From: an uncultured Gammaproteobacteria bacterium
GTDB taxonomy: Bacteria > Patescibacteriota > Microgenomatia > CAZETR01
NCBI GenBank assembly: GCA_964514545.1
Contig: CAZETR010000033.1
Location: 1,954-65,953 of the forward strand
DNA: 64,000 bases
Direction: 5' to 3'
The stretch's first letter is position 1; every line of letters begins with the position of its first letter. Made by a program: the position numbers and the translations under genes. The notes under the pieces were generated by a model. The model worked only from the letters and a program-made list of their open reading frames with translations. It made no database searches and was not told the DNA's origin. Shown in pieces: positions 2,038-42,842 of the stretch.

Positions 2038-2050
2038 CCTCTTCGTCGAT

Positions 2051-2080: not shown

Positions 2081-2102
2081 GGTCCGCAGATTTCTGTCTG
2101 CT

Positions 2103-2774: not shown

Positions 2775-2859
2775 ATGTTTATATTTGGCCGATATTATGC
2801 CCAGATGGACATTGTGTCAAGCACCAGAAAAATACCCATGAGTAGTGTAAGCTAAAAGT

Positions 2860-4675: not shown

Positions 4676-4698
4676 AAATCCTGGCTTACCTTAATCGC

Positions 4699-5058
4699 TT
4701 AGTTAACTTGTTTATCTTGTTTAACTTCGGCCTTTTCTTCCTTCTTCACCCTTTCAATCATCTCCCGCAAAGTCTTGGGCTTGGCTGCCTCAATTGCCTC
4801 CTCCCGCTGTTTCTTAATCAGTTTCTTCATTTTTTTCTTTACAATCACCCGTCCCACAGCGGCTCTCTGCTTTTGGGCAAATTTCTCGACCCTTCCCAAG
4901 GTGTCCACAAACCTCATCTCGCCGGTAAAAAACGGATGACAAGCCGCGCATATCTCCACCTTGATCTCGGGTTTAGTCGAGCCCGTGACAAATGTGTTCC
5001 CGCAAGCACAAGTGACAGTCGCCTGATAATATTGAGGGTGAATTCCTGTCTTCATCAT
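4699..5058 (-). CDS. rpmE: 50S ribosomal protein L31 with Lys-rich C-terminal extension
   Basis: [10 protein letters not shown]…CxCG…CxxCHPFFTG zinc-ribbon signature. Confidence 0.8.
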
Positions 5059-8570: not shown

Positions 8571-8572
8571 AC

Positions 8573-9796
8573 TTAACCGGGAAATAATTCTATCGCTTTG
8601 TCCAGTTGTAAATCAACCTTCACGTCTTTGCTGCTTTGAACTGTAACATCAGGCTCAACTCCAACCTTATCAATCCACTTCCCCGAAGGCAAAAGCCACC
8701 TGGCAATCGTTACGTGCAATCCCGACCCTCCGGGCAAATCCTCCGGCTGTTGAACGGTTCCTTTCCCAAACGTCTTGACTCCCACAAGTTGGGCCCTGTG
8801 ATTATCCCGTAGTGCTCCAGCTAAAATCTCGGCCGCTGAAGCACTGCCCTCGTTTACCAACACTACCAGGGGTTCGCTTAAAAGCCTCCCTTTTCGATTA
8901 ACCTCTAAAGTCTTATTCTCCTCACTGTTGCGATTCTCTTGCTTAACCACGATGCCTGATCCCAGAAACTCCGATGCCATGTAGACCGCTCCATCGAGGT
9001 AACCACCGGGGTTATTGCGCAAATCCAAAACAACCGGCATCGTCCCCCCCAAAGAAAGTTCCTCCTGCTTTATCTGATCTACAGCCTTATTCCATTCCTC
9101 ATCTGTCCTTCCGCCAAATTTTGTTAGCTTAAATACTGCCACTCGTCCACCACCCTGCCGTGGCTTAAACGTCAATTCCACACTCTTGACCAGAATTGTA
9201 TCCCGCCTGAGAGCAACTTCTCTGGGTTTTTCCTCCTCACTTCTAAAGATCTTGAGCACCACTTCACTTCCCTTGGGACCCCGAATGAGTGAAACTGCTT
9301 CCGGAAGAGAAATTGTGTCTGTGCTTTTATCCACTCCTGCTTTCTCATCGCGAATGTTAATGATCAGATCTCCAGACTTAATCCCCGCCCTATCCGCCGG
9401 CGAGCCGCTCAATGGAGAAATAACGGCCAATTGTTTGTCTTTATAGCCCAACTGAATCCCCACTCCTTCAAACGACCCTCCTAAGTCGTCCTTTGACTGA
9501 CGATTTTCCTGGGGTGGCAAAAAAACAGTGTAGGGATCGCCAAGTGACGAGACCATCCCGGAAATCGCCCCGTATACCATTTTTGCCGGATCAATGGCTT
9601 TGGGGTCGACATAAATAGCGCTCACCCTATCCCAAACTTTCCAAAAAAGAGACAGGTCTGCTTCATTTCGCCTCCCCACCTCTCGTCGTCCTAATCCGGA
9701 TCGCGCCTGTCCCAACCCAAATCCGACCAAAAATAACATTACTGCTATCGAAAATCTAATCAAACTCCTCGAAGTAGGTAACTTATTAAATCGCAT
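8573..9796 (-). CDS. C-terminal processing peptidase (S41, CtpA-like) with PDZ domain
   Basis: PDZ followed by S41 core '…VVLVNEGSASAAEILAGAL…'. Confidence 0.8.
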   Translation of the reverse strand: MRFNKLPTSRSLIRFSIAVMLFLVGFGLGQARSGLGRREVGRRNEADLSLFWKVWDRVSAIYVDPKAIDPAKMVYGAISGMVSSLGDPYTVFLPPQENRQSKDDLGGSFEGVGIQLGYKDKQLAVISPLSGSPADRAGIKSGDLIINIRDEKAGVDKSTDTISLPEAVSLIRGPKGSEVVLKIFRSEEEKPREVALRRDTILVKSVELTFKPRQGGGRVAVFKLTKFGGRTDEEWNKAVDQIKQEELSLGGTMPVVLDLRNNPGGYLDGAVYMASEFLGSGIVVKQENRNSEENKTLEVNRKGRLLSEPLVVLVNEGSASAAEILAGALRDNHRAQLVGVKTFGKGTVQQPEDLPGGSGLHVTIARWLLPSGKWIDKVGVEPDVTVQSSKDVKVDLQLDKAIELFPG

Positions 9797-9841
9797 GTCT
9801 TAAAGCATACCGCACCCAACCCAACCTGTCACGAAGAAAAA

Positions 9842-13394: not shown

Positions 13395-14024
13395 GTACCA
13401 ATGTTATCACTAATTAGAAATTGGCGTAAAATTAACTTTCGGAAGTCTAAACTTTAGTTTAAATTCAAAAAGTGTGTCTGTGACTTGGCCATCCCTATCT
13501 GTAGTCCCACTGACTTTCTCCTCTCTTTTTGTCATCGCTCAAGTACAAAACATGAGGCAGATTCGTCAGCAGAGCCTGTCTCATTTTTTTATCGCTCTCC
13601 ACAAATCGATTTTACCACCTCACGTTCACTAATTTCGCAAACCCCGCATTTAAGTGAGAGTATACGTTTGGCCTGGAAATTCCCGTATCTTGTGCCACCT
13701 CATCTATAACCCCCAGGTCCATGTAGCTACAAATGCACTGCCATTGTCTGACAGTAACTCCAGCTCTAAATGCAATCGTTTCCGCCACTTCATACGACGC
13801 TGACTCTCCAACCTTTCAACTACTTCAGGAAACAGAGCTTCGTATCGGCCTTCGTGGTAAAACTTTATTTTGAGTTCTTCCATACGGGAAATCTAATGAA
13901 TTCAAGTAGATAACTAGAGGATATTAATACGAATCCGGGATAGTTGCTTGATATAATTATGTCAAAATAATGACGATTTAGAGTCTAAAATTAAATCATC
14001 ACTCAATTTCTCTTCCCTTTACAG

Positions 14025-14738
14025 CTAATACTCCTCCACTTCCCAAGTTTTCTCTAAAAATTGCAGCCTGTTCTGGGCCGCCACCTTAAGTATCAAGTGC
14101 ACATCAGGAAATACTTTTGACAAGTCCTTTACTTCTGACTTGCTCATCCAAAGATTCCTACCACCTTCAAATTCCTTAACCAGCTGTCCTTTGACTTTTT
14201 CAGCCACAATCACGTAAAAATATTTGTCTTCGAGGAGCGCTCCATTCTTGTTATCGATTTTGTGCTCGATTCCCACCAACCGCACTTCCCCTTCCAACCC
14301 GGTTTCTTCGTTCAATTCCCTTAGCGCTGCTTCCAAAACCCTCTCTCCCCACTTGATCTTACCGCTAACAAATCCATGATACCCAAAATATGGCTGCTTT
14401 AACCGCTCTTGGAATAAATACTCTACCGTCCCTCCAACAATTCGTCGAGGAATTACCAACACCGCTGTTTTGGGCTGACGCTCGATCTTTCGGTTATCGG
14501 TATCCATTCTGTTTGCCAGCTCCTTACCGGCAGCCGTCAACCCATATCCAAGCGGTGTTTTCTCGACAAACCCCAACTCCACCAATCGCCGGAGATGAAA
14601 ACTAAAGTGATCATTCTCCAGACCCATCAAGTTAAGCTGGGAAAACCGGGCAACGGGCATAAACAGAAGTTTGCGTAAAATCTCGGCCTGAACCGGATGG
14701 ATCTCAAAATCAGTGTTCATGAAGCCAAGTATACCCAT
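14025..14738 (-). CDS. winged-HTH / NUDIX hydrolase fusion protein
   Basis: N-terminal wHTH (…FHLRRLVELGFVEK…) and C-terminal Nudix box 'GKIKWGERVLEAALRELNEETGLEGE'. Confidence 0.6.
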   Translation of the reverse strand: MGILGFMNTDFEIHPVQAEILRKLLFMPVARFSQLNLMGLENDHFSFHLRRLVELGFVEKTPLGYGLTAAGKELANRMDTDNRKIERQPKTAVLVIPRRIVGGTVEYLFQERLKQPYFGYHGFVSGKIKWGERVLEAALRELNEETGLEGEVRLVGIEHKIDNKNGALLEDKYFYVIVAEKVKGQLVKEFEGGRNLWMSKSEVKDLSKVFPDVHLILKVAAQNRLQFLEKTWEVEEY

Positions 14739-14807
14739 ACCCGCCTAGAAGTCTAGTAAAGACCACTTCACCATCCAAAAACAAGGGTTTGTTCCACAGG
14801 AGGAATT

Positions 14808-17777
14808 CTATTTCAAAACCTTAAACTTGGCCTTGCTCCTGGCAGTTCCGTTCGCATTCGTTACTGATACATACCCAGTCGTGGCCCCACGCGGAACCTG
14901 AACGGTTATCGACCTGTCATTTACAATTATTGTCTTTGCTTGATCCAAATTCATGATAACCATAACAGGTCCGTGTCTGAACCCAGATCCAACTATCTTA
15001 ATCTCCGCTCCTGGTTTTGCGCTGTTGGGAACAAAACCATCAATCACCGGCTGAACGGGTGGAGTTGAAGTAATCGTTGTTGCCGGGGACGGACCGGGAG
15101 TTAACATTCGAGTAGGTGAAGGAACTGGAGGCGTAAGGACAACTGTTGGTGTCGGGACTACAGAAACAAGAGGAGTTGGCGTAGAAACAGGAGGAATATA
15201 GTCAAACGGCTTATAGTAGATTAATACCCTGCCTCGGTTTAAGTCGGGAATGTATAAATTATCATCTTCATCGAAAACTGCTGAATATGGCTGAGAATAA
15301 AAATCCCTCAACTTGTAATCAGGGTTAATGCTCGTTTTAAGCGTCTGGACCGGATCAGTATAAAGTCCGGGGAAGGGGGGCCAGGTTCCCCAGACATTGT
15401 AACCTATCGCCATCTGATTTCTGGAATTAAACGCCGGCTTCCACGCTGCGACTTTCGGCGAGACCAGAGTCGCGTCAGGCCCCATTAGTGCTCTATCCGT
15501 AATCCCGTCGAACATGTTTTTATCAAACATCAGGATTCTCTTATTGCCGTGAAATTCCAATGAATTGTCATTTACCCACACATTTCCCAATCTATCCAGA
15601 GTAACCCCCCCAGGTTTGCAAACCGTGTTTGTAGCAGCCCCAGTCGGTTCTGCAGTCCCTGAGTAATTATTAAGCGCCGGATCCCTGTTACAGGAGGCGT
15701 CTGTTGCATTTGCCTGCCCGAGAATCACATCGACAACCGGGCTTGTCAACGGATCACGAACCCTAATCACTCTATGCGTATTATCCGAAGCCTGAGTTAG
15801 CCACAGATATTTACCGTCGGATGTTACATCTATACCCCAAAAATCATCATTAAAACCCCATTTTATTTCTCCCCCACCAAGAACAGGTAACGGCCTTTCG
15901 GAAGAGATAACTCCACGAGTAACCGGCTGAGCTCCGCTAACCAACGGTAGGTCATAAACATCTACTGTCGATTTTCTAACTACGAACATGTGGTTGCTGT
16001 CAGCCGTAATCATTCCAATCCCCCACGGGTCCCTATCTTCAAAACCGCTTATTCCTGCATATCCGTTCGCCGGCTGACCACTGGAAAGAGTTTTCGCATC
16101 GTTCCAAAACAATAATCTGTAAGAATCAGCGACAATAAATTGATTATTTTTAACCATAACCGCATGAGGAGAATCAAGCCCTTTATTGCTACGATAATTT
16201 AACCCTTCCGGAGGAGAAAACAACTTCTTGTCAGCCGAATAAATAAATCCGGGGTGAATTGTGGGGATCGGAGCCGGAAATCTCCACACGTCCTGCCAAG
16301 ACGAAGAGGCAGACACAAAGATATTGCCATCGGTGTCAAACCCAAAGGAACCATACGCTTCACACATATTTGAAGAGCAATTACCGTCCTTGTCGGGATT
16401 AACACATTGTAAGTTGGGCGTAACCGACCCACACTGAAGATTCTGCTGCAACGAATCCTTAAACAACACCTTATCAACTGCAGTTCCTTCTCTGTTCCAA
16501 TGAGTCAACATCTGGTTAAACCTCTCCAAAATCCACACCCCATCACCGGATGGATCAAACTCAATGGAAAGCGGACCCTTTATCCCGGTCCCGAAAGTTG
16601 ACGAAGCTGACATGCCGCTTGTAAACGGAGGCTTAAATATTGTTATTCTCCCGGTATTCTCGAGTTCGTGACCTTTTTCTACCACATACAAGTCCCCCTC
16701 CGGACTAAATCTAACGGCAGCCGGCTCATTCATCTGGTTCAGGCCAGTACCCCGGGTTCTGGTCGAAAAGCGCTGCTGCCCAAGTACCAAATCCGCGGTC
16801 TTTGATATCTCTCCAGAGTCGTTTACAGGAAATCTCAATACCCGATGGTTTGAAGAGTCGGCCACCCACAAGTTACCCGTTTTATCAATCTCAACACCTG
16901 CCTGAAAGCTATCCTGAAATGCTTGATTAAATCCCATACACAAAGTGCCTGACGTCGGCGAAGCGTCTCCACCGCCTCCGTTACACTCGTTTCCGGTAAA
17001 ATCATTTTGTCCCCACACTTCATCTGCAACAGTATCTGTAGTAAATGGAGAGTTAAACTTTAAAACTCTATTGTTATAAAAGTCAGGAACGAACAGATTA
17101 CCATTTGAATCAACCGCCATGCTGGCTGACGAACCACCCTCGAGCGGACTGGGCAAGACACCGGGTAACAAACAAAGAGACCCAGAAGAGGCCTTTTTCC
17201 TAGCCGGATAATATTCGTTATTACTATCCCCGTTGCACGCCGAGTAGCCATAAAGGCCCGGTTGGCCTAGCACCAAATCAGCGGGCTTTTTATCAATCAG
17301 TTGGCATTTGGAATCTTCACATTCAGAATTGCTGGTGCAGTTTCTGAGAACCCCATTCTTATTACAAGTTCCCAGATAGGAATGCCCCAATATTCTATTA
17401 TTGCCACCGTCATAAACGTAAATTCTATTTGGCTTGACTGACCTATCGACAACAACTCCGCCTGGGTTAAACAACTTAAAGGGAGCTACTTCGTTTATGG
17501 CCATCTGGTTAAAATCAATCTGGCCAATGACTACGTCGGCCCACAAATCTCCTGGTTTACCCCTCTCGACCGAAGATAAGGCAACAGAAGAAGCGCTAGC
17601 CTTAAGCTCTCTTTTTTTCTTTACAGCATGCGCACCAAATCCCACGCCAACTACGAGAAGCAGCATCAATGCGGGAACAAGATATTTCTTCGAGTTTGAG
17701 AACCAGTTAAATAGCCGGTCGGGAAACTTTGAGGAAGATTGAACCAAAACTTGACCGTCGTTATCTATCTCCACCAT
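14808..17777 (-). CDS. large secreted/surface protein with NHL (β-propeller) repeats and C-terminal IPT/TIG domain
   Basis: N-terminal TM/signal, repeated 'NNRVLKFN / NHRVLRFP' NHL motifs, Pro/Thr-rich linker, C-terminal Ig-like 'PVIDGFVPNSAKPGAEIKIVGSGF…'. Confidence 0.6.
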   Translation of the reverse strand: MVEIDNDGQVLVQSSSKFPDRLFNWFSNSKKYLVPALMLLLVVGVGFGAHAVKKKRELKASASSVALSSVERGKPGDLWADVVIGQIDFNQMAINEVAPFKLFNPGGVVVDRSVKPNRIYVYDGGNNRILGHSYLGTCNKNGVLRNCTSNSECEDSKCQLIDKKPADLVLGQPGLYGYSACNGDSNNEYYPARKKASSGSLCLLPGVLPSPLEGGSSASMAVDSNGNLFVPDFYNNRVLKFNSPFTTDTVADEVWGQNDFTGNECNGGGGDASPTSGTLCMGFNQAFQDSFQAGVEIDKTGNLWVADSSNHRVLRFPVNDSGEISKTADLVLGQQRFSTRTRGTGLNQMNEPAAVRFSPEGDLYVVEKGHELENTGRITIFKPPFTSGMSASSTFGTGIKGPLSIEFDPSGDGVWILERFNQMLTHWNREGTAVDKVLFKDSLQQNLQCGSVTPNLQCVNPDKDGNCSSNMCEAYGSFGFDTDGNIFVSASSSWQDVWRFPAPIPTIHPGFIYSADKKLFSPPEGLNYRSNKGLDSPHAVMVKNNQFIVADSYRLLFWNDAKTLSSGQPANGYAGISGFEDRDPWGIGMITADSNHMFVVRKSTVDVYDLPLVSGAQPVTRGVISSERPLPVLGGGEIKWGFNDDFWGIDVTSDGKYLWLTQASDNTHRVIRVRDPLTSPVVDVILGQANATDASCNRDPALNNYSGTAEPTGAATNTVCKPGGVTLDRLGNVWVNDNSLEFHGNKRILMFDKNMFDGITDRALMGPDATLVSPKVAAWKPAFNSRNQMAIGYNVWGTWPPFPGLYTDPVQTLKTSINPDYKLRDFYSQPYSAVFDEDDNLYIPDLNRGRVLIYYKPFDYIPPVSTPTPLVSVVPTPTVVLTPPVPSPTRMLTPGPSPATTITSTPPVQPVIDGFVPNSAKPGAEIKIVGSGFRHGPVMVIMNLDQAKTIIVNDRSITVQVPRGATTGYVSVTNANGTARSKAKFKVLK

Positions 17778-17816
17778 CCCATGGTACAGCCAACTCGCTC
17801 AAATTTGCAACTACAC

Positions 17817-18998
17817 TCAAAGTGCAACTGCTCCCAGTTTTGACTTTGCTAAAATCCGCAGTGAAATTAACAAACAAGTGAAAACTACCAAACTTCCAAA
17901 CAGAAACGGCGCCGGAATAGCTATTGTCGCCACAATTCCGCCGGCAATTGGTCCAAATATCATTCCCAAACTGACATAGGACGAATTAACTCCCAATATC
18001 TCACCCTGGCTTTTGGCATCGACCTCTTTGGACAAAAGGGATGAGATAACCGGAGCCACAAAACCATTTACCAGCGAATGAAGCAGAGAAACTGTAATAA
18101 ACCAAGCGAAGCTCCGGGAGAAAAAGAGGAGGGCAAACGAAACCACGCCGAAAGACAGGGATAAACTTAACGTTTTTCGATCTCCAAATTTTTTAGTAAT
18201 CCTGGGGATAATCAGAAGCTGCGAAACCAGCCCCATAATTCCAAACACGGTAAAGCTCTCCGATATCTGGGTTGGGGAAAGATGCAACACGCGAACGGAA
18301 ACAGGCTGGTAGGCAAAGATAAATAACGAAAAGGCAAATGAATAAAGCAGCGAAACTAGTAAGGTCATGCCGACATTTTTATCGACAACTGCCCGGGCCA
18401 ATTTCCGCAGATCAATTAGCTGGCCATGCGCAACCTGGCCTATATTTTTATTAGTCTCGGGCAGAATAAACCAAGTCAATAGAATTGCAATAAACGTCAT
18501 ACTGGCTGCGACCAAAAACGGTACTGAAAGACCAAATCCCAAAGTCAAAGCTGAAATCGCCGGACCGAAAATAAATCCGAACCCGAACGAGGCCCCGATT
18601 ATTCCAAATCCGCGGGCCCGATCCTTGTGCTCAGTCGTATCGGAAATAACCGCCGAGGCCACAGGAATATTGCCGGCAGTAATCCCGTCCAATGCCCGGG
18701 CCAAAAAGAGAAAAACTGCGCTCGGGGCAAACGCCATCATTAGAAAGGAAATCATGGTTCCGGCCAGCGAGATGAGAAGCAATGGTTTTCGCCCATACTG
18801 GTCCGACAACCTGCCGATAAGTGGGGTTGCCAGGAATTGAAACAGAGAGAAAGTCGCAAACAGTAACCCGTTTTGAAAATCGTTTAGCCCAAACTTACGG
18901 GAATATGAATAAAGAATAGGGATGATAATCCCATATCCCAAGGCATTTACAATCGCAATGACAGATACGGCCAGTAGACTCTTGTTGTTTTTAAACAC
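17817..18998 (-). CDS. MFS transporter
   Basis: 12 TM profile with MFS loop motif 'GRLSDQYGRKPLL'. Confidence 0.75.
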   Translation of the reverse strand: MFKNNKSLLAVSVIAIVNALGYGIIIPILYSYSRKFGLNDFQNGLLFATFSLFQFLATPLIGRLSDQYGRKPLLLISLAGTMISFLMMAFAPSAVFLFLARALDGITAGNIPVASAVISDTTEHKDRARGFGIIGASFGFGFIFGPAISALTLGFGLSVPFLVAASMTFIAILLTWFILPETNKNIGQVAHGQLIDLRKLARAVVDKNVGMTLLVSLLYSFAFSLFIFAYQPVSVRVLHLSPTQISESFTVFGIMGLVSQLLIIPRITKKFGDRKTLSLSLSFGVVSFALLFFSRSFAWFITVSLLHSLVNGFVAPVISSLLSKEVDAKSQGEILGVNSSYVSLGMIFGPIAGGIVATIAIPAPFLFGSLVVFTCLLISLRILAKSKLGAVAL

Positions 18999-19097
18999 AA
19001 TCTCCTATGTTAACTCAAGCACAAACCAGCTGTCTACCCCAAAGACGGCAAAAATCCCGCCCAAAGGCGGGATTTTTAACTCCTTAAATTCAAGTCT

Positions 19098-19334
19098 TTA
19101 CATTGCAGGAGCTGCCGGCGCTGCCGGAGTCTCCATAACTTCTGTCGCTGTTTCACACATCTTGGCAACATCCTCCATCGAAGGAACTGGCTGACCCACG
19201 TGCTTTTCACCAAAGTGGGCGTTGACTGCATCCTGAGTCATCATGGCCTTAAAAGCTGCCACGGCTGCCGGTTGATCTGCTGCATCGACAAACATGTCAT
19301 CTCCGCAGGTACAAGTCATTTTAAATTTCTTCAT
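19098..19334 (-). CDS. small Cys-containing protein, DUF1059-like (putative metal-binding)
   Basis: MKKFKMTCTCGDD… pattern and size resemble DUF1059 family; intermediate GC. Confidence 0.35.
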   Translation of the reverse strand: MKKFKMTCTCGDDMFVDAADQPAAVAAFKAMMTQDAVNAHFGEKHVGQPVPSMEDVAKMCETATEVMETPAAPAAPAM

Positions 19335-19408
19335 TCAATTTCACCCCCTCTCAGTTTTGAAACTGATCCCAGTCTACGCTAAAACAAGTCCTCATTCAAC
19401 CACAAAAA

Positions 19409-19434
19409 GCCCCGGCTGGAAAACCAGCCGGGGC
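19409..19434 (-). terminator. rho-independent terminator (11-bp GC stem, AAAA loop, T5 tail on minus strand)
   Basis: GCCCCGGCTGG-AAAA-CCAGCCGGGGC perfect hairpin; minus-strand reading is followed by CTTTTTGTGG; immediately downstream of minus-strand gene 19611-20726. Confidence 0.8.
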
Positions 19435-19610
19435 CGGGGGTCTGCTCTGGAAACCAGGCAAACCCGCGATTTTAGAGATCCTTCTCCAATTGCCGGACAG
19501 GAACTACCCCGCGCGGCGGCAAATACGCCGCGAGGATGGCCCCGCCGACAGTGAAAATGAGCAGCGGTACCAAGATAGCTAAAACCACCAGATTCATGGG
19601 GTTTAGCCTA

Positions 19611-20726
19611 CTAGGGCGCGGGGGCTGTCGGGGTGACAGTAATGATAGCCCCAGGGAACATCACCTGAAGCACCGCCCGGACCACCTCCGGATCTTGGCC
19701 TGTAGTTGCTGAGAAAATCGTCCTCAAGACTTTCGCCTGGGACTCCGCATCGAGTTCGGCTTGCTGTCGACCGAACGCGGACTGCGTTGCCTCAATACTC
19801 TGACGCAGTTGCAGATTTTCTTGCTGCTGCTGGAGGCGCTCCCCTTCCAAACGCTCTTTCTCCACTTCGGACTGCGCCGCAGACTGACTATCACGGTAGG
19901 CCTGATCGCCAATTTCGACCCCGCGGATGAACACCGCGAGGATTTCAATCGGCTGACCGGCGACGGCCTTATCGATAATGCCTTTATAGATATCCGCCAG
20001 GCGAGCGCGCCCATCGGCAGACAAGATGTCATTCTGAGTCAATCCCGAACTCATCGCCCGGGCCGCACGCAGCGGCGATCCGATGAAAATCTGGGTTGCC
20101 GCGTCAGCAGAGGCCATCTCCCACAAGGCCTTGGCCGTATCATCGGTGTAAACGAATCTGAAAGACACGTCCACGTCCACGTTCGCACCGACCGGGTTGT
20201 CGTTAACTGACGCGCCCGTTAGCGTAGTTTCACACTTAAAACTGGCGCAAGCATCGGGATTGGTCAGCAGATCGGGGCGCAGAGTTCTGTAGCGGAGGAC
20301 GCCTGCAGGAAACAACAGTGTCTGTGAAACATCAATGTTGTACGTCCCCTGACTCAGAATCCGGTACTTCGTCTGGCTTTCGCGGTAAACCGCAACCAAG
20401 CCAGTCTGCACCACTGCCGCAGGAACCAGGAGAACCCAGGATTGGGCAATCTCCCGGTATTGGCCAGACGGAAGAATCTGGCCCTTGTAGAGGCCGAACT
20501 GTCCCTGCGGGACGTCTGCGATCGGCTCAACGATATCTTGGGACCCGACCGAATCGCCCGGCCGGAACAGTTGGGTGTAGGGATCCTGCTCGTTGCCTGG
20601 CGTGAACTGCTGATTGGGCGTGTAGCCGATCTCACCCGTTTGCACAACCTGGGGCCCGCCCGCACAGGACGACGCCAAAAGCGAGAGTAATACAAGCAGC
20701 GCAAACACGATCGATTTCCTGCTCAT
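19611..20726 (-). CDS. lipoprotein with SPFH/band-7 (prohibitin-like) domain
   Basis: Lipobox signal (LLASSCAGG), C-terminal SPFH-like region and coiled-coil (…EKERLEGERLQQQQENLQL…); high-GC island. Confidence 0.55.
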   Translation of the reverse strand: MSRKSIVFALLVLLSLLASSCAGGPQVVQTGEIGYTPNQQFTPGNEQDPYTQLFRPGDSVGSQDIVEPIADVPQGQFGLYKGQILPSGQYREIAQSWVLLVPAAVVQTGLVAVYRESQTKYRILSQGTYNIDVSQTLLFPAGVLRYRTLRPDLLTNPDACASFKCETTLTGASVNDNPVGANVDVDVSFRFVYTDDTAKALWEMASADAATQIFIGSPLRAARAMSSGLTQNDILSADGRARLADIYKGIIDKAVAGQPIEILAVFIRGVEIGDQAYRDSQSAAQSEVEKERLEGERLQQQQENLQLRQSIEATQSAFGRQQAELDAESQAKVLRTIFSATTGQDPEVVRAVLQVMFPGAIITVTPTAPAP

Positions 20727-21104
20727 TCCACATCCTCCATGATGTTGTTCAAGTAATTGCTGAAAAATCGATAGTCTTTCCGACGCAATCGCTCGATAAA
20801 TCTCCTCCGTTTCTTTGAAGAAATAGTAGTCAGCAATTCATTCAAGCTGCCATTCTAAGCACAAGTTATTTATGCCAAAATTGGCAGCCTGAAAGTATAA
20901 ATTGGATTTCAAAGTGCAACGATAGAGTTGACAGCACATCGACAAGATATGCGGTCAATATATCGGGCAATCCGGGTGCCAGGTCTCTACCAGCCGCGGT
21001 TTCCCGCAACTGTCAGAATACCCGACACCCGTTTTTTCAGTCAGAGGATTGCTCCCCCAGCCGGATTGCCGTGTTGTTACTTGAGATTCAAACTGGGAAC
21101 GATG

Positions 21105-22286
21105 TTACGCAGCGCGCATGATCTCGACAAGCTGGGCGGACAGCTTGTTCTCCGCCTCATGCAGTTCGCCACGACCGCGCTCGACTTCCTGACGCGCCTT
21201 TCGGTTGGCGGCGGCCGCATCGCCCAGCGCCTTCATGAGCGTCTCACCGCTCGTAACAATGGCATCAGCCATCCGATTGAGGGTCTCGACACGCAAGGCC
21301 ATCTGGCCCAGGAGCTGGGAACTTTGAGCGATCATCTGCTCATAGGCTTCCGCAGAGTCCACCGCTTGTTTGTTCATGAAGTCAATGCCCGTCTGGAGAG
21401 CGAGTTGGGCAATTTCGGCTTGCAGGGCATCGAGCTGCAGAACGACGTCGGTCTTCCACTGCGGAATGCCCATCTCCAAGAAATCGCCCAGGCCAAGCGC
21501 CACAATCGCATTGGCATTGCGCTGGCCGAGAAACCGACGCTCGTTCATGTTGCCCATGTGAATGTACGCCGGCAGCGACCCGAGCCGCTTGATGAGCAAC
21601 GGGCTGATGCCTTCGAGCCGTTCACGCTCGCCGCTGTCCACGGCCAACTTGAGGGCTTCGAGGCGATCGGTCAGCAGGTCCTTCAAGTCCTCCATGCCCG
21701 CACACAGATACAACAACTTATCCGTGCGCCCGTCGGCCTCTTCGGCCAACTGGCCATCGCGGACCACGGCCTCGATCACCAGATCGTACTGCCGCTGCAG
21801 AATGTCAATGTCCTTCTGCATCACCGCGAGGACGGTCTGAAACTGCTGGAGCGCTTCGCGGATCTCCTCGGAGATCGCGCGCACCCAGTTGACGACTTCG
21901 CGCGCCTTCGCCTTGCCCTGTGCGACTTTCTCGACAAAGCGCTGGTCAACTTTCGGCAACCTGCCGTTGACTTCGCGCATCTTGCGCGTGGCGCCCTGCA
22001 CGCCCTGGCTGACAACACCACCGTCGCGCATCTTCATGTTTTCGAGCATGGCATCCAAGCCGGGCGTCTGCTGAACATCGAAACCCTTGATCATCTCGAT
22101 GAAGAACGTGACACCGAAGTTGGAGTCCTCGAGCGCTTTCAACGCCCAGGCCTTGACTTCATCGCGCTTTCCTTGAGACAAGAGAGCACGCGCAGAGAAC
22201 TGAGGGCCGGGCGTAGTGACAGCGGCTTGGACGACTGGGACAAGTTGCTGTGAAGCAGCGGTCGGAAGGGGTAACGTGGTAGTCAT
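21105..22286 (-). CDS. TelA-like (toxic-anion-resistance / YaaN family) coiled-coil protein
   Basis: ~390 aa all-helical coiled-coil protein with TelA-like layout and C-terminal 'IPQWK…' region comparable to B. subtilis YaaN; neighbour is XpaC-like as in Bacillus xpaC-yaaN. Confidence 0.5.
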   Translation of the reverse strand: MTTTLPLPTAASQQLVPVVQAAVTTPGPQFSARALLSQGKRDEVKAWALKALEDSNFGVTFFIEMIKGFDVQQTPGLDAMLENMKMRDGGVVSQGVQGATRKMREVNGRLPKVDQRFVEKVAQGKAKAREVVNWVRAISEEIREALQQFQTVLAVMQKDIDILQRQYDLVIEAVVRDGQLAEEADGRTDKLLYLCAGMEDLKDLLTDRLEALKLAVDSGERERLEGISPLLIKRLGSLPAYIHMGNMNERRFLGQRNANAIVALGLGDFLEMGIPQWKTDVVLQLDALQAEIAQLALQTGIDFMNKQAVDSAEAYEQMIAQSSQLLGQMALRVETLNRMADAIVTSGETLMKALGDAAAANRKARQEVERGRGELHEAENKLSAQLVEIMRAA

Positions 22287-22345
22287 GCTTATTCTCCTTA
22301 TCTGACTAAGTCTGAACGTTGGAACGAGGAATATTGCTCGCTATT

Positions 22346-23458
22346 TTACTGAATAGCGGTCTTGATGGCCTCAAACACGTCGCGCTTGGGTTCGCCCACT
22401 GACTGGGGATTCGCCACGAGCCACGGAACGTCAGTGTCGCCCGGCTTGGCAGCGATGCCGCCGGCTGCAGTTCGCATACCGTACTGGCTCCAACCGAGAG
22501 CTTGCAACGTTTCATCCGTGCCAAAGATTTCGACGAGACGGTCCCCATTCTCTGTCAGACTGCCAAGCACGTGATCCGTGCTCACAGTCCACTCGGGGTA
22601 AATTCCGACGATCAGGTTGCCGTCGGACTCGCGCCGCGACTGTGGCAACTTGTTGCGCCAGCCTAGGTAGAGCGACTCAGAGCTAGCAGCCAACGGGATC
22701 GAGCCACTCTGGTAGACATAATCCTCGAACCACTCAGGACTAGACTCGGCCTGCCGAGGTTGCATAGCCCAGTTGGCTACCAGATTCGGAAGTACCGTAG
22801 GCAGGCCATTCAGATCGCACACGAGGCCGCCTTCGACACCGCCCGGCATCTGGTAATTGCAGAGCAAGAACAGGTGTTGTAAGCCACCGCTGCTTTTGGC
22901 CGGGTTAGTGTAACGGATATTCACTCGGCCAGGAATGGGCACGCCGATGTCCACCCACGCCTCCTGACTATTCATCGCCTCGATCACCGGCGCCATTTTC
23001 ATGTAGTAGGCGCCGTTCTTCCCATAGACGATGCCGCTGTCCAAAAGCGGTTGGAGAAACAGATCCCGACGGGTATAAAACAGGCCGTAGGTGCGAAAGA
23101 TTGTGTCGTGTTTTCGGACAAGCCCCGGTTTGGCGGTAGTGAAATCTTCGTACCCGCTTGCCGACCCCGGCCAGATACAATCAATGCCGGTCAGATCCTT
23201 GTCCTTCATCTCGAAGGTTCCGACGCTGATCGACTCCACATCGATATTGTAGTCAGCCAGTAGGTATTCCTTCACTTTCGCGTCGCGCAGGAAGACCTGG
23301 CCACCGAGGCAGGTAACCTTCATCGCCGGCCCGAGCGTGGGCGTCGGCGTCGGCAGGTTGGACTTTGCCTGACCCGCCAGCGAAAACGCGATGATAAGGA
23401 ACGTGGCAACGACGACAAGAACGCCAAGTCCGATAAGGAGACGTTTGTTCATGTTCAT
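22346..23458 (-). CDS. membrane-anchored periplasmic-binding-protein-like protein (paralogous to N-terminal half of the vWA protein)
   Basis: N-terminal TM then Pro/Thr linker; shared pattern with ORF 24131-25723 N-domain (K..L.D.GI…DV.W..S……RTY). Confidence 0.4.
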   Translation of the reverse strand: MNMNKRLLIGLGVLVVVATFLIIAFSLAGQAKSNLPTPTPTLGPAMKVTCLGGQVFLRDAKVKEYLLADYNIDVESISVGTFEMKDKDLTGIDCIWPGSASGYEDFTTAKPGLVRKHDTIFRTYGLFYTRRDLFLQPLLDSGIVYGKNGAYYMKMAPVIEAMNSQEAWVDIGVPIPGRVNIRYTNPAKSSGGLQHLFLLCNYQMPGGVEGGLVCDLNGLPTVLPNLVANWAMQPRQAESSPEWFEDYVYQSGSIPLAASSESLYLGWRNKLPQSRRESDGNLIVGIYPEWTVSTDHVLGSLTENGDRLVEIFGTDETLQALGWSQYGMRTAAGGIAAKPGDTDVPWLVANPQSVGEPKRDVFEAIKTAIQ

Positions 23459-24111
23459 GGCTTACTCCTCTCCGAGTCTTCGATGATGCTCCGAAGTAAT
23501 TCCGCAGCCCGCCCCGCCTTTGAGGTTGTGGTGGCAAGCTGTCGGAGCAAATTCAATTCGCTTTCGGCCGCGAGCAGCTTGCGCGCCCGGCCTTCGTCAA
23601 TACCGACTTCCAGAGCTTCAAGCGCTGTTTCCGTCTCCGGAATGTGCTGAGTTTCCAACTCCGTCATCAACGCGGCCATCTGGGAACGACTCAACGTTAC
23701 TTCACCGGTGAGCACACCCAGAACGGTCAGAAAACTATCTGAAAGCTTTTCCAGCCGCCGCACGTGAGTACCAATACCGGTGAGATCGCGCGTAACGAGC
23801 TTGGCAGCCATGCGAGCGATGTGAACCGCAATCGCCTGCAGCGCATCCTTCAATTTCGGTGAGCGCTGACTTTCAGCGATACGCTTGATTTGCGTTGCAA
23901 TCCGAGCCGTCCGCCCCAACGATTCCTCCAACGCGATGACGTCATCGGACTTGCGTAGAAACAGAAAGTACGTAACCAGCAGGCCAGCGGACGGGACAAG
24001 CCCAACCGCAACCCGAATGATTGGCGCACCGTATGGAAACAGAAATGCTGTGGCAACCATCGCGATGAGTGCTGCAGCCACAGCTAGAGAGTCAAGGATC
24101 TTTTGATTCAT
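23455..24111 (-). CDS. XpaC-like (5-bromo-4-chloroindolyl phosphate hydrolysis family) membrane protein
   Basis: Two N-terminal TM helices followed by helical cytoplasmic domain, ~210 aa, 4-nt overlap with downstream gene; classic partner of TelA/YaaN. Confidence 0.4.
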   Translation of the reverse strand: MNQKILDSLAVAAALIAMVATAFLFPYGAPIIRVAVGLVPSAGLLVTYFLFLRKSDDVIALEESLGRTARIATQIKRIAESQRSPKLKDALQAIAVHIARMAAKLVTRDLTGIGTHVRRLEKLSDSFLTVLGVLTGEVTLSRSQMAALMTELETQHIPETETALEALEVGIDEGRARKLLAAESELNLLRQLATTTSKAGRAAELLRSIIEDSERSKP

Positions 24112-24130
24112 GCAACACTCTCCTTGGCAA

Positions 24131-25723
24131 CTAATTGTTGCCCTTGAACAGGCGGAAGCACTTCACAAGCGCCTCCTGCCCGCCGCGGCCGTCACAGACC
24201 GCGCCGTGCGTGTAGTCGGCGATTTCTTTCATCGCCCCTTCGCTGGCAGAGCCGAAAAGGATCGTGTAGATGGGCACATTGCTTTGATCACCCTCGTAAG
24301 TCCTCTTCAGAGAGCCAAACGACGTGCCGACCGCGTTGTGCTCACCGTCGGTCAGAAGAATAACTGCCGGAAGCTGTCCAGGCTGAGCGCCCGTCGAAAC
24401 AATCTCCACCGCTCGTTGGGCGCATCCATAGATGTTGGTTCCGCCGGCAAGTTGCTGATTCTCAACGCTTGACAGGAGCGAGGCAAACTGCACAGAATCA
24501 TTGCCTTGAATTGAATACTCAGCCAGAACATTCTCGGCAAAAGCAAGCACGTAAGTGGTGTCGCCGCCTGACGCCTGCAAGAGGTACTGCGCCGCCAGGG
24601 TTTGATCCAGCAGGAGTTTCATCGCCGCCCTGAGTTGAGTCTCACCAGTCCCCTGCATGCTACCGGAGTAGTCAAGGCAAAAGACTGTGAACGACGGCTT
24701 GCGTAAAACAGTCTGGTACATATCGAGGGCGCGGGCAATTATCGTGTCTTTTGGCAATTCGATCAGCGCAAACTCGGTTTGCGCATCGATGCCCCACGCC
24801 GGATTGAAAACGCTCGGATCGGGATTCTCCACCCGCATACCGACGCGCCCTGTCCGGAACCCGAGAGACTGCAGTTTGGCACGCACGTCGTCACTGGTGA
24901 GGTATTCGGCCAGTTGTTTGAACTGGGCCTGCTTTTCCTCACTGGCGCCCGACACCCACCCAAGCTGGTAGTTCTGCATGCCGACAGCGTTGCTGACGTA
25001 AAAGACCGTCATCGGCGCCGCACCCTTGCCGACCAGTTCTTGATTGGTCGCGATGAGCATGCTTTCCGGCAGCACTATAGCGTTGTATTGCCCGCCACCG
25101 GAAGTGCGGTCCGCCACGAATGCAGCTTTGAGGTCGCTCGCGTTGCTGGCAGTCCGGCTCACCGCGGATAGAATCGTCCGCAGCGCGTCGACATCACCGC
25201 CCGTCGCCTGCCACAAGGCAAGGTAGAAATTGGCGCCGGCATCGTCCTGCGACGCACTCGGCATGGCCAGCTTGACCTTGCCCGCATTGATCGCAGCAAT
25301 GATGTCATTGACCGTGATGCCCGTCTGAGAATTCCAGCCAAGTTCACTGACCAGACCGGGATCCATGGCGAACACCACGTAGGTGCGCATCACCGAGGTC
25401 TTATCCCGGACAAGGCTTCCCGGCAACCAGATCGGTGAGGCCGCCCAGAAGACATCCACGTCACCGGGGTTCTGTGCCGTATACGCCAGGACCTTAAGTT
25501 TGACCTCAACAGAGCCCAGATAGCGTGTAGATACCGCAACTCCGGTCTTTTCAGTGAACGCTTTGAAAATGCCAGCGTCCTCGAGAAGCTTCACCTCACT
25601 CGCCGCATTGATGCGCAGAGAGCTCGGATCAGCCGGCGGAGTGACATTGGGCAACAAATCAGGCCCGCACGCCACGACAGCCAGATACAGTAGTACGACG
25701 GGAAACAGACATAACCGCTTCAT
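24131..25723 (-). CDS. lipoprotein with N-terminal PBP-like domain and C-terminal von Willebrand factor A (vWA) domain
   Basis: Lipobox (LAVVACG), MIDAS motif 'DYSGSM', second vWA motif '…LLTDGEHN…'. Confidence 0.7.
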   Translation of the reverse strand: MKRLCLFPVVLLYLAVVACGPDLLPNVTPPADPSSLRINAASEVKLLEDAGIFKAFTEKTGVAVSTRYLGSVEVKLKVLAYTAQNPGDVDVFWAASPIWLPGSLVRDKTSVMRTYVVFAMDPGLVSELGWNSQTGITVNDIIAAINAGKVKLAMPSASQDDAGANFYLALWQATGGDVDALRTILSAVSRTASNASDLKAAFVADRTSGGGQYNAIVLPESMLIATNQELVGKGAAPMTVFYVSNAVGMQNYQLGWVSGASEEKQAQFKQLAEYLTSDDVRAKLQSLGFRTGRVGMRVENPDPSVFNPAWGIDAQTEFALIELPKDTIIARALDMYQTVLRKPSFTVFCLDYSGSMQGTGETQLRAAMKLLLDQTLAAQYLLQASGGDTTYVLAFAENVLAEYSIQGNDSVQFASLLSSVENQQLAGGTNIYGCAQRAVEIVSTGAQPGQLPAVILLTDGEHNAVGTSFGSLKRTYEGDQSNVPIYTILFGSASEGAMKEIADYTHGAVCDGRGGQEALVKCFRLFKGNN

Positions 25724-25940
25724 GTAGCCTCCTTAACTATCTAATAGCTAATGGACCAGTAGGTAAGACTATTGCCAATATCTTCGGGAAATTTTCCCTC
25801 CTTTGAATCTCAAGTTGTTAAAGAGCTAATTAGGCTGTAACTCCACAAAAAAGCACCGCAAAAGTGGCGCTTGTTCTGTGAAGTTTACATCGGGCGCGAT
25901 TTTATCAGCTTCCAACCCCTAAGTCAAATCCTATGGGTTA

Positions 25941-26723
25941 CTATTTTCCTATCGCCATCCAGTTTACCTTGACCGAAGAGTTAACGCCAGCTTTATATAC
26001 GAATTGAGTATTAGATACGCTTCTAATTAAAACCGAAAATGGAGTTCCCGTCACCGAGATAGGAGTCGCAAGTACAACGGGAGCTGATGTGTATGGCTGG
26101 CTAAAGATCACCGTTCCCTTGCCAGTAGCGTCTGATGTAGAAACACCGAAAAGCAGAGTGTTACCTGATTCAACATTTAGGGCTAAGGGTCCTGTTGCTC
26201 CGGTTGCTCCAATAGATCCAGTAGCCCCTGTCGGCCCTACCGGACCTGCAACTCCAATCGGCCCGGTCACACCGGTTGTCCCCAACAGACCTGTCGCCCC
26301 GGTTGCTCCATCTGCCCCCGCCACTCCCGTCGGTCCCGTAGTTCCCATATATCCGGCAATTCCCGAGAATCCAGTATAACCGAACAGTCCTGTGAAGCCG
26401 GTATATCCAGCCTGCCCGGACGGTCCTGTCGGTCCGGTTGTTCCAGTGGGTCCAGTGCGACCCGCAAAACCGGAAGCACCCGTGTAGCCGGCCATCCCGG
26501 TTGGTCCGGTAGCGCCCGTTAACCCAGTCGGGCCGGTTTTACCCGCTGACCCAGACATACCCGTAAATCCAGCCGGACCGGACGGACCCGTAGGACCGGT
26601 CGCTCCAGTCGGACCTGTAATTCCTGAGGAACCAGTAAAACCAGCCTGCTGAGCCAAAGCAACTCTCGCAAAAACACCAATTCCCAACACTCCGAATACT
26701 AAAACTATAATTAAGCGCTTCAT
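25941..26723 (-). CDS. secreted collagen-like triple-helix repeat protein ((G-X-T)n, BclA-like) with ~80-aa C-terminal globular domain
   Basis: Signal peptide, ~50 uninterrupted Gly-X-Thr/Pro triplets ([19 protein letters not shown]…), non-repetitive C-terminus. Confidence 0.75.
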
Positions 26724-26868
26724 TTAAACCAATTCTTTCACTTGAATGTATTACGCTCTAAGTTACCTGTCAAGTAGTATCGACCTCCTGCCAAAGAGCA
26801 ACTATCTAAACTCCGTTCCGAGATTCTTAACCACATTGACCCCGTAATGAAGGTGCTCAAACTAACTT

Positions 26869-28293
26869 CTATTTTATCTTTACATTAGGTCCTTGATCCG
26901 AATCATGAACTTCGTATCCCAATTTCTCTATTTCACCTCTTAATTTATCCGCCTGGGCCCAATCCTTGGCTTGTCTCGCCTTCTCTCGCCTCGCAACCAA
27001 CACAGCTACTTCTTCTGAGATTTGGGATTTGGGATTTGGGATTTGGGATAAGCGCAAGCCCAGCACCTCATCCCAACTCATCAGCAGGTCCCATTTATCC
27101 CGATCCGGCAACATGCTCTTTCCCATCTCCCATACCACTGCCATCGCCTGGGGCATATTCAGGTCATCCTCGACGGCCAAACGAAACCTATTTGTAAATT
27201 TGTCAACCAGTTTGGTTTTTGAGTCTGACACTATTTTTCTTATATCCGCATTTTCCCTCCAACCCTGCACCAACGTGACTAGCCTAACTCGGGCATTTCT
27301 GGCCGCGTCCAGAGATTCAAACGTCATATTTAACTGATCCCGGTAATGAGCGGTCAGGTAAAGATAGCGCAAGTCCAACGGATCGTAGCCCCTTTGCACT
27401 AAATCTTGAAGGGTATAAAAGTTTGCGGTACTCTTGGCCATCTTTTTACCGTTCACTAGAATAAACGCTCCGTGAACCCAATACTTCACAAACGGCTTGC
27501 CTGTCGCGGCCTCCGACTGGGCAATCTCATTGGGATGGTGGGTAGAGCGCAAATCCTCTCCACCCACGTGCAGATCAAAAGACTCACCCAAATATTTCAT
27601 GCTCATAGCCGAGCACTCGATATGCCATCCCGGAAACCCCAACCCCCAGGGACTATCCCACTCCATTTGTCGCTTAGCCAGCCCCGAGCTTGCCGAAGGA
27701 CTAAACTTCCACAGCGCAAAATCCCGTGGGTTTCGCTTCTCGGGATTTACCTCGACCCTCGCGCCCTCCCGAATCTCATCCAGTGTCGAAAGCTCACCGT
27801 AATCCGGAAATTTGGAGGTGTCAAAGTACACCCCGTCGCGGGTTTTATAAGCATAGCCCTTTTCCTCGAGTTTCTTTACCAGCTCAATTTGCTCATCTGT
27901 GTGGTCCGTGGCCTTGGCAAACAAGCGCGGTTGAATGAGATTCAACTCCCCAAAATCCTTGAGAAACGCCTGAGTATAAAATTCCGCAATATCCCAAACC
28001 GTCTTCCCTTCTCTTTTAGCTGACTCCTCCATCCGGTCGTGGCCTGTATCAGAATCTCCCAAATTATCCCCAGTCAAGTGTCCCACGTCAGTCAGATTCA
28101 TAATATAGTCAACCTCGTATCCGAAAAACTTCAGAGCCCGAATCAGTAAATCCCCCAAAGTGTAGGTACGGAAATTGCCGATGTGGGCAAAGGAGTAAAC
28201 AGTCGGTCCGCAGGTGTATATGCCAACCTTGCCTGGATTAATCGGCGCAAATTCTTCCAGCTTTCGTGTCAAAGAGTTAAACAATCTCATCAC
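26869..28293 (-). CDS. cysS: cysteinyl-tRNA synthetase
   Basis: Class I motifs: 'CGPTVYSFAHIGN' (HIGH region), 'KMAKS' (KMSKS); contains in-frame heptamer-repeat insertion (…SQIPNPKSQIS…). Confidence 0.9.
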   Translation of the reverse strand: MMRLFNSLTRKLEEFAPINPGKVGIYTCGPTVYSFAHIGNFRTYTLGDLLIRALKFFGYEVDYIMNLTDVGHLTGDNLGDSDTGHDRMEESAKREGKTVWDIAEFYTQAFLKDFGELNLIQPRLFAKATDHTDEQIELVKKLEEKGYAYKTRDGVYFDTSKFPDYGELSTLDEIREGARVEVNPEKRNPRDFALWKFSPSASSGLAKRQMEWDSPWGLGFPGWHIECSAMSMKYLGESFDLHVGGEDLRSTHHPNEIAQSEAATGKPFVKYWVHGAFILVNGKKMAKSTANFYTLQDLVQRGYDPLDLRYLYLTAHYRDQLNMTFESLDAARNARVRLVTLVQGWRENADIRKIVSDSKTKLVDKFTNRFRLAVEDDLNMPQAMAVVWEMGKSMLPDRDKWDLLMSWDEVLGLRLSQIPNPKSQISEEVAVLVARREKARQAKDWAQADKLRGEIEKLGYEVHDSDQGPNVKIK

Positions 28294-42110: not shown

Positions 42111-42842
42111 CTAACCAGGCGTAAACTTGACCATTTCACTCTCCCCGATTGCCAACGCAACAAACCCTCGATTTCTACCCAGCATCTGCTCATCTTTTCG
42201 CTTGGCCATATAGAGAAGGCCGTCTACCCTTTTTCTTAACTCATCGGCACTTTCGCTCCCGTCATCTATACTTGCACCAATGCTTACTGTGACCGATCCA
42301 AAGTCAGACGGCAATCTAGCCATTTCAGCCAGAGATTTGGCGCAAACCTCTCCAACCTGACGAACAACTTCAATTAACTCCTCCTCTGAAACATCGGGGA
42401 TCACCACCAAAAACTCCTCTCCACCATCCCTACCTATCACCCAACCGTCCGACAGAGAATTTAAAATCTCTGCAAGTGCCAACAAAACCTTATCACCATC
42501 TGGATGACCGTAAGTATCGTTCACCTGTTTAAAGTGATCGACGTCCATCAATATCACTCCCACTTTTGAGTTATGTCTTCTCTGCAGAGATAGAGCGTCC
42601 TCCAGCCACTCTCTTATTCCTGTTTGATTCAACAGACCAGTCAACCTATCAACCCTAGTCAATACCTCAATTTCCAAACGCTCCTCAACTAGAATTCTAG
42701 CAAACTCTTCTCTCAATAACGTCCCGTCCACGATTTTATCGTGCATTTCTCCATACCTTACGTCTAGCGCCTCACTATGCAATCGCGCTCTATCTGGAAG
42801 AGAAAGCCTAGGCTTCTCCCGCCTTTCTCCCGCCTCGCTCAT
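42111..42842 (-). CDS. GGDEF-domain diguanylate cyclase
   Basis: 'GGEEF' active site, upstream 'DVDHFKQVNDTYGH' motif. Confidence 0.8.
   Translation of the reverse strand: MSEAGERREKPRLSLPDRARLHSEALDVRYGEMHDKIVDGTLLREEFARILVEERLEIEVLTRVDRLTGLLNQTGIREWLEDALSLQRRHNSKVGVILMDVDHFKQVNDTYGHPDGDKVLLALAEILNSLSDGWVIGRDGGEEFLVVIPDVSEEELIEVVRQVGEVCAKSLAEMARLPSDFGSVTVSIGASIDDGSESADELRKRVDGLLYMAKRKDEQMLGRNRGFVALAIGESEMVKFTPG

Follow-up and report, generated by a model that had tools for sequence, protein, structure and literature searches.

Collagen-like proteins that end in a globular head are familiar in bacteria and phages, and the general design of the protein described here is ordinary. The exosporium proteins BclA and BclB combine a Thr-rich, nearly uncharged GXT stalk of variable length with a C-terminal head of the TNF/C1q-like BclA_C type, while streptococcal Scl1/Scl2 and Legionella Lcl are bacterial surface adhesins with collagen-like repeats. 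In animals, the secreted defense collagens (collectins, ficolins and C1q) carry a C-terminal recognition head on a collagen stalk. A further group of relevant systems is formed by the H-type lectins (PF09458) of mollusc, slime mold and cnidarian, which are six-stranded beta-sandwiches. It includes Helix pomatia agglutinin (HPA), Helix aspersa agglutinin (HAA), the C-terminal domain of discoidins I and II and SLL-2, of which HPA and the discoidins are trimeric. The feet of the pyocin fiber and of AP22 gp53 are also trimers, and one lectin fold unites these feet with the C-terminal domains of the LKA-1 and phi297 tailspikes, the discoidins, the agglutinin and the octocoral lectin (PMC6363177). 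In many members of this fold, a variable network of distal loops binds polysaccharide, and for the pyocin foot the binding of lipopolysaccharide sugars through variable distal loops has been proposed (PMC6363177). Here, a bacterial chromosome segment of 64 kb, referred to below as the window, was analyzed for a gene whose product joins a secretion signal and a collagen-like stalk to a head predicted to adopt this lectin fold.

In comparison with BclA and BclB, the protein has the same type of stalk and likewise a C-terminal head; however, the head is H-type-lectin-like, the exosporium leader is absent, the organism is probably of a non-sporulating candidate phyla radiation (CPR) type and the stalk is unusually rich in Phe and Tyr. 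The Scl proteins have an N-terminal globular trimerization domain, an LPXTG anchor and charge-rich repeats, whereas a C-terminal head, no LPXTG and few charges are found here, and the NCBIfam models for such adhesins (NF038329, NF038330 and NF046116) align over the repeats only, with 85.7 versus 325, 71.7 versus 400 and 76.7 versus 500 bits, respectively. With the animal defense collagens the principle is common, as an analogy only: their heads (C-type lectin, fibrinogen-like or C1q) are not homologous to this one, and their Cys-rich N-terminal oligomerization segment is missing here. Relative to the H-type lectins, the bacterial (CPR-like) head has the six-stranded beta-sandwich in common but is about 15-20 residues shorter, the deletions falling at the positions of Asn61/Arg63 and Trp83/His84 of HPA, and it is joined to a collagen stalk, a combination absent from the publications on H-type lectins that were searched. 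The best structural matches are the pyocin fiber feet (PA0620), AP22 gp53 and the C-terminal domains of the Pam1, phi297 and LKA-1 tailspikes, where the domain is a C-terminal knob on a fiber or spike, as here; the distal loops of the pyocin foot are variable, and the equivalent loop is hypervariable in the present family. Nevertheless, the phage and pyocin shafts are beta-helical or intertwined, whereas the present shaft is a predicted collagen triple helix, and this protein is the product of a stand-alone chromosomal gene amid housekeeping genes, with a Sec signal and without the baseplate-attachment domain, chaperone or phage neighbors of those fibers.

What is new is the union of a collagen stalk with a head of the H-type-lectin or tail-fiber-tip type in a Sec-secreted chromosomal protein, its confinement to a very small family, and a stalk 10-30 times richer in Phe and Tyr than those of other Thr-rich collagen-like proteins. 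No report joining collagen-like proteins to CPR bacteria or to H-type lectin heads was found in the literature. We consider, with a probability of roughly 0.6, that the protein forms a secreted homotrimeric fiber of ~44 nm with a glycan-binding tip and serves as an adhesin in a bacterium of the CPR type, Microgenomates-like and presumably episymbiotic. A life attached to other cells is generally assumed for CPR bacteria, few of whose attachment molecules are known; a short, easily expressed protein with a tip of the receptor-binding type is a concrete candidate for such attachment. It is also a compact bacterial collagen, the small, 82-residue C-terminal domain of which may serve as a trimerization module for protein engineering.

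Architecture of the protein and integrity of its repeat array

The three-part plan proposed in the first-pass annotation, namely a signal peptide, GXT-rich triplets and a non-repetitive C-terminal domain, was recovered in full, with the extents listed in Table 1. Translation begins at an ATG and yields 260 residues according to the open reading frame (ORF) listing. As read from the sequence, the N-terminus consists of an MKR n-region, 15 hydrophobic residues and the c-region ARVALA / QQ, in which ALA / QQ after residue 24 is a predicted classical signal peptidase I site. This layout is kept in all five homologues of the same architecture, mostly as A-x-A/Q and in two as A-L-G/Q and K-V-K-A/E. 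The collagen starts within a few residues of the cleavage motif in P0014, P0121, P0124 and P0126, while in P0123 the spacer is longer and the collagen begins about 20 residues past the predicted cleavage site. Type IV pilin-like processing at "AGFTG" was considered and ruled out, as the hydrophobic segment lies before that motif and not after it.

Table 1. Positions of the collagen gene, its parts and further features in the window.
Feature	Position	Strand	Basis
Complete gene, 260 codons and TAG stop	25941..26723	-	ORF listing; same product on an independent Logan contig; same-architecture homologues
Sec-type signal peptide, residues 1-24	26652..26723	-	Read from sequence; layout recurs in homologues
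Collagen-like region, residues 28-180	26184..26642	-	Triplet count; Pfam Collagen, E 4e-24
C-terminal head, 82 non-repetitive residues, 179-260	25944..26189	-	AlphaFold2 model, Foldseek, profile homology
Promoter-like site, TTGACA-17-TACATT	26745..26773	-	Consensus scan, 10/12 matches; pattern match only
Terminator-like hairpin, 7 pairs, loop 8, then T-run	25841..25872	-	Consensus scan; pattern match only
High-GC region (island)	19000-25900
Island genes	19611-20726; 21105-22286; 22346-23458; 23455-24111; 24131-25723	-
PMT_2-type membrane glycosyltransferase	5731-7395	+	E 6.4e-6
NHL-repeat protein, 989 residues, C-terminal IPT/TIG	14808-17777	-
GGDEF diguanylate cyclase domain protein	42111-42842	-	E 6.7e-32

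The stalk comprises 51 consecutive G-X-Y triplets (153 residues) with zero interruptions, and in all six frames of the window there is no other run of at least six triplets. So many Gly residues in register lie beyond chance. Pfam Collagen (PF01391) scored 84.6 bits against a cut-off of 27.2, which places the region among the bacterial collagen-like proteins. Thr occupies the Y position in 29 of the 51 triplets (57%), followed by Ala in 8 and Ser in 6, while the X position holds Pro in 14 (27%), Ala in 9, Phe in 5 and Tyr in 4. By sequence, these proportions of Pro at X and Thr at Y are a BclA-like composition. Only three residues of the repeat region are charged (0.06 of triplets), and no Cys is present anywhere in the protein. 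Stalk and head meet at a junction motif that is conserved in the family, TGP-x-x-[LI]-x-[IV]-E-x-G. The promoter-like site sits in the 145-bp gap behind the gene for cysteinyl-tRNA synthetase (CysRS) directly upstream, and the terminator-like hairpin lies 70 bp past the stop codon; the gene looks monocistronic.

The aromatic content of the stalk sets it apart. Aromatic residues occur in 0.20 of its triplets, and in 0.14-0.42 of those of the long-stalk family members, mostly as Phe or Tyr at X. For 119 other Thr-rich collagen-like proteins obtained with the full-length query, the mean was 0.014 per triplet and the maximum 0.098. The resulting 10-30-fold enrichment was noted for P0121, P0123, P0124, P0143 and P0144. 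In the present protein the aromatics are concentrated in triplets 27-33. Side chains at X face outward in a triple helix, so that the rod would bear a hydrophobic belt, and it may be conjectured that this belt makes the rods associate side by side or touch a layer of the envelope. As a separate observation, the window also encodes a membrane glycosyltransferase of the PMT_2 type (dolichyl-phosphate-mannose protein mannosyltransferase-like), which could conceivably O-glycosylate Thr-rich exported proteins, the collagen stalk among them.

Repetitive coding arrays are a recognized assembly hazard, and the array might in principle be collapsed, expanded or chimeric and the ORF unreal. The copies, however, are only 60-70% identical in DNA and contain no long exact repeats, which makes collapse or expansion unlikely, and Tandem Repeats Finder returned only short, weak arrays. 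Furthermore, the independent Logan assembly of run ERR3478687 matches window positions 16493-27048 over 10,556 bp with 0 mismatches and includes the whole gene, and the frame stays open across all the triplets into a conserved head that has homologues of its own. Triplet numbers in the family are 4, 23, 24, 26, 29, 35 and 51, and P0143 and P0144, which fall in one 90%-identity cluster, differ by a clean insertion or deletion of 6 triplets; such differences between relatives are natural variation and not an artefact. An assembly error is accordingly regarded as extremely improbable.

Fold and family of the head

A family profile was derived from an alignment of 15 domain sequences of the head family (A1), which also served as input for AlphaFold2. 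The resulting model of the head, with a mean predicted local distance difference test score (pLDDT) of 92.8 and a predicted template modeling (TM) score of 0.81, is a beta-sandwich of six beta-strands. When compared with the PDB by Foldseek, the R2 pyocin fiber foot ranked first (6CT8/6CL6, TM 0.77); it was followed, in this order, by the receptor-binding domain of the cyanophage Pam1 tailspike (7EEA, TM 0.70, root-mean-square deviation 1.6 A), HPA and HAA, the AP22 gp53 tail fiber (4MTM, TM 0.72), the R1 pyocin fiber and the phi297 tailspike, and the coral lectin SLL-2 with discoidins I/II. The Foldseek probability was 1.00 to HPA, HAA, SLL-2 and discoidin II. Among the predicted viral structures of BFVD, 33 matches were obtained at E<=1e-3, nearly all of them annotated as tail fiber, receptor-binding, H-type lectin domain or gp53-like C-terminal domain.

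Comparison at the sequence level gave a consistent picture once the family was considered as a whole. The single head sequence returned only chance flavivirus matches from the PDB by phmmer (E about 0.7-1), and the family profile was needed. With the A1 profile, hmmsearch against the PDB retrieved the Helix pomatia and Helix aspersa agglutinins at E 1.4e-5, and hhalign aligned it with HPA residues 24-98 at 94.3% probability and E 9.6e-8; the conserved motif F-x-x-x-[FY]-x-x-x-P-V-V and the terminal W-x-A-I line up between the head and the H-type lectins. Within the family, the Pfam model H_lectin was found in 12 of the 15 domains at E<=1 (best 1.8e-9) and Gp53-like_C in 14 of 15 (best 1.8e-6), and P0127 carries a precomputed PF09458 match. 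Taken over the family, these profiles clearly establish that the head is homologous to the H-type lectins; by its model the head has an H-type-lectin / Gp53-like_C tail-fiber-tip fold, and it is a distant, sub-threshold relative of both Pfam families. Variation in the domain is greatest in the loop that connects strands 3 and 4, which holds all insertions and deletions; pairwise identity in the close family is 0.18 there and 0.69 in strand 6, as would be expected of a specificity loop.

The nature of the head bears directly on the earlier description of the protein as BclA-like, of which one part held and the other did not. The stalk is indeed a Thr-rich, charge-poor collagen with a C-terminal head, and the resemblance of the collagen region to BclA/BclB and to phage fibers was confirmed, the best named repeat matches being exosporium proteins of the BclB type. 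The GXT-rich, length-polymorphic collagen typical of BclA/BclB is also present, with Thr dominating Y and 4-51 triplets among relatives, and the overall plan, in which collagen links a targeting segment at the N-terminus to a globular head at the C-terminus, is common to both. The leader and the fold of the head are different. The suggested check of the head against the C1q/TNF-like and BclA_C models was run, and neither PF18573 nor PF00386 matched even at E<=10; hhalign of the family profile gave 0.1% against P0099, which contains BclA_C, and 0.1% against a C1q-containing collagen protein, and none of the 50 matches listed by Foldseek was a TNF, C1q or BclA structure. Although exosporium proteins are the leading named matches of the full-length search, those matches are confined to the repeats, with a coverage of about 45-63% of the query. 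No NCBIfam model of an exosporium leader matched, the only matches being the repeat-driven Scl/Lcl ones, and the N-terminus is a predicted cleavable Sec signal. Moreover, the sole named homologue comes from Microgenomates, not from a spore-former. Membership in the BclA family is therefore refuted on both head and leader, and it is extremely doubtful that the protein is an exosporium or spore-surface nap protein with a collagen stalk, a TNF/C1q-like BclA_C head and an N-terminal exosporium leader.

The family is rare. At E<=1e-3, an exhaustive HMMER scan of 1.84 billion representative proteins with the head yielded 18 sequences, of which five (P0121, P0014, P0123, P0124 and P0126; 132-226 residues) follow the same plan, with a signal peptide, GXT-rich collagen, the conserved junction and a head ending in NW[ML]A[IV]GK (NWTAIGQ in P0126). 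P0127 is a single domain of 76 residues, whereas P0125 (L012, 5001-5837) and P0137 each consist of the domain repeated exactly three times in tandem within a single chain, without collagen; by their sequence, these two are possible single-chain pseudo-trimers and would fit a threefold unit. In P0132 and P0135 the domain stands at the C-terminus, and further relatives are large surface proteins with several copies. A word-indexed search returned nothing for the head alone and only P0127 with the 15-sequence profile; at full length it was dominated by repeat-only matches, yet gave the true homologue P0014. A scan of JGI metagenomes with alignment A2 found no relatives. The only homologue from a named genome belongs to Candidatus Microgenomates bacterium (JACQHK010000017), which renders the CPR affiliation suggested in the first-pass annotation plausible; the assignment of the window to CPR is indirect, being drawn from this family membership together with synteny with related contigs.

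A candidate fiber and its main alternative

In the mechanism proposed for the adhesin, the protein would be exported by Sec and then cleaved after Ala24, whereupon the exposed N-terminal Gln may cyclize. Subsequently, the head would trimerize and set the register, and the 153-residue triple helix would zip toward the N-terminus. At the textbook collagen rise of 0.29 nm per residue, this would give a ~44-nm rod bearing a single trimeric knob. Hydroxyproline synthesis is not expected in bacteria; the triple helix would form without it, possibly aided by glycosylation of Thr. The variable loops of the head would then bind surface carbohydrate, and the fibril would attach either to the surface of another cell or to the cell's own envelope.

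The head probably trimerizes, and the role of a surface fibril proposed in the first-pass annotation is kept as the best reading. A trimer is inferred because the homologous feet of pyocin and AP22 are trimeric, as are HPA and the discoidins, because the head is fused to collagen across a conserved junction, and because relatives with three copies exist. The sequence fused to the head can fold only as a three-chain helix.

Several observations weigh against the adhesin interpretation and should be set beside it. On the head of this protein itself, H_lectin (PF09458) reached only 17.9 bits (E 0.0034) with a gathering threshold of 24, and Gp53-like_C (PF21882) 18.8 bits (E 0.0025) with a threshold of 24.9. 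The residues of HPA which we take to contact N-acetylgalactosamine (Asp26, Asn61, Arg63, His84 and Tyr89) are not conserved: in the hhalign alignment Asp26 is replaced by Ser17, His84 by Val69 and Tyr89 by Ser71, while Asn61 and Arg63 fall in a 5-residue deletion of the head, so that no ligand can be named. The structure prediction for the three-domain relative P0125, made from an alignment of two sequences, reached a pLDDT of 32. No neighbor is common to all homologue loci, hence the surroundings provide no hint of a partner. Finally, LPXTG, a lipobox, a C-terminal transmembrane segment and S-layer homology domains were all unseen in the sequence of the mature protein, and without a recognizable anchor the protein may simply be soluble.

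This last point makes a freely soluble agglutinin the main alternative. In that case the protein would correspond, among prokaryotes, to the collectins, ficolins and C1q, and would be secreted to cross-link or coat other cells or polymers. The mature protein opens directly with collagen, its plan of a stalk and a putatively trimeric lectin-fold head is that of the soluble defense collagens of animals, and the exposed aromatics of the stalk could drive bundling, as in collectin oligomers. On the other hand, there is no Cys for the disulfide-linked bouquets of collectins or C1q, and the lectin activity itself is putative, the presumed sugar contacts of HPA being lost. The observations fit either form, and we regard the soluble agglutinin as unlikely in comparison with the attached fiber.

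A further-reaching form of the adhesin interpretation can be put forward as a speculation of rather low probability. An ultra-small CPR lineage may have fused a phage-receptor-binding or H-type-lectin tip to an unusually aromatic collagen rod, and thereby obtained a ~44-nm, tail-fiber-like organelle for attachment to its host. If true, episymbionts would possess a class of adhesin not described before, and prokaryotes an equivalent of the defense collagens of the collectin/C1q type; specificity for host or glycan would lie in the hypervariable loop of the head.

Chromosomal setting, the adjacent island and a possible phage origin

The window is a bacterial chromosome segment in which nearly all genes lie on the minus strand. 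In each of the 64 one-kb intervals the guanine-plus-cytosine (GC) skew lies below zero, and in all but about eight it lies below -0.1; its cumulative value is -13. No tRNA gene was found in the 64 kb. The strand bias and the skew fit a single replichore with strong gene-strand bias. Apart from CysRS, the genes of the window include those for RecR, DnaX, YbeY, ProRS, an RseP-type protease, the ribosome recycling factor (RRF), EF-Ts, ribosomal proteins S2 and S6, SHMT, TopA, YchF, SSB, HtrA, a CtpB-like protease and a release factor (RF). The homologues likewise stand in cellular surroundings. In Candidatus Microgenomates the homologue adjoins the gene for LeuRS, and the contig of another homologue, L006, is syntenic with window positions 700-9800 through HisRS, EamA, RF, L31, HtrA and an S41 protease at 28-65% identity.

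Immediately beside the collagen gene lies a region of high GC, with which, according to the first-pass annotation, the gene might have been acquired. Codon usage contradicts this. The GC content at third codon positions (GC3) is 0.42 in the collagen gene, 0.59-0.76 in the island genes and 0.45-0.55 in the backbone, and the Gly codons of the collagen gene are rich in GGA and GGT like those of the backbone, whereas the island prefers GGC. The gene thus borders the island, as had been noted, and is not part of it. The GC of the gene is raised by its Gly, Pro, Thr and Ala codons alone, as the values for second (0.66) and third (0.42) positions reveal, in agreement with the earlier statement. The island itself encodes an SPFH/Band-7 protein, a protein with weak TelA/ZorA(MotA)-like similarity, two products without a significant Pfam match, and a protein with solute-binding and VWA domains and a lipoprotein-like N-terminus. 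Neither tRNA genes nor flanking direct repeats were found, and no integrase domain was recognized among the ORFs scanned. The island looks like a horizontally acquired membrane-associated module.

The kinship of the head with pyocin and phage fiber tips requires that a phage origin be weighed, in which the gene would be a tail-fiber or receptor-binding gene of a prophage or prophage remnant, or a tailocin fiber gene, and not a cellular one. Besides the fold, strong PHROG tail-fiber matches were obtained, some of whose alignments enter the head (phrog_8745 to residue 242 and phrog_38766 to 251), a viral contig encodes a protein with the same ...INWMAIGK terminal domain, and the gene adjoins a compositionally foreign island. 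However, the collagen repeats account for most of the PHROG scores, and 50,697 phage records gave only two weak tblastn matches, at E 3e-3 and 0.2. The Sec signal peptide, which virion fibers do not need, is kept in all the close homologues, and the codon usage is of the backbone type. No phage gene was recognized among the roughly 40 window ORFs scanned or around the homologues on L003, L006 and L007-9. The promoter-like and terminator-like sites, the housekeeping neighbors and the native codon usage point instead to a cellular origin, and the phage reading as a whole is considered very unlikely. The specific candidate of a prophage gene was rejected in view of the weak matches to phage records, the housekeeping neighbors and PADLOC, which reported nothing for the collagen gene.

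The viral contig, L004 (IMG/VR UViG_3300050010_000040), is of interest in itself. Its gene at 7694-8275 encodes 193 residues with an N-terminal hydrophobic segment, no collagen stalk and the C-terminus ...INWMAIGKANQ, a phage relative of the head, and directly follows a gene for a 335-residue protein that is capsid-like in look and unannotated. On L006, which comes from a related genome, a 729-residue tyrosine recombinase (Phage_integrase) at 13499-15688 is split by an intein that contains a LAGLIDADG endonuclease domain; the collagen-like homologue is 3 kb away. On three ENA contigs, P0143 is followed after 46 bp, in the same orientation, by comEA (SLBB and HHH_3) and comEC (Competence and Lactamase_B); the three loci lie at 10001-13242 on L007, 3180-6421 on L008 and 1090-4331 on L009, and this arrangement is absent in the window, L003 and L006. 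In the window, a probable large surface protein with NHL repeats is encoded 8 kb from the collagen gene, just past the island, and the gene for a GGDEF diguanylate cyclase domain protein is located amid those for S2, EF-Ts and RRF.

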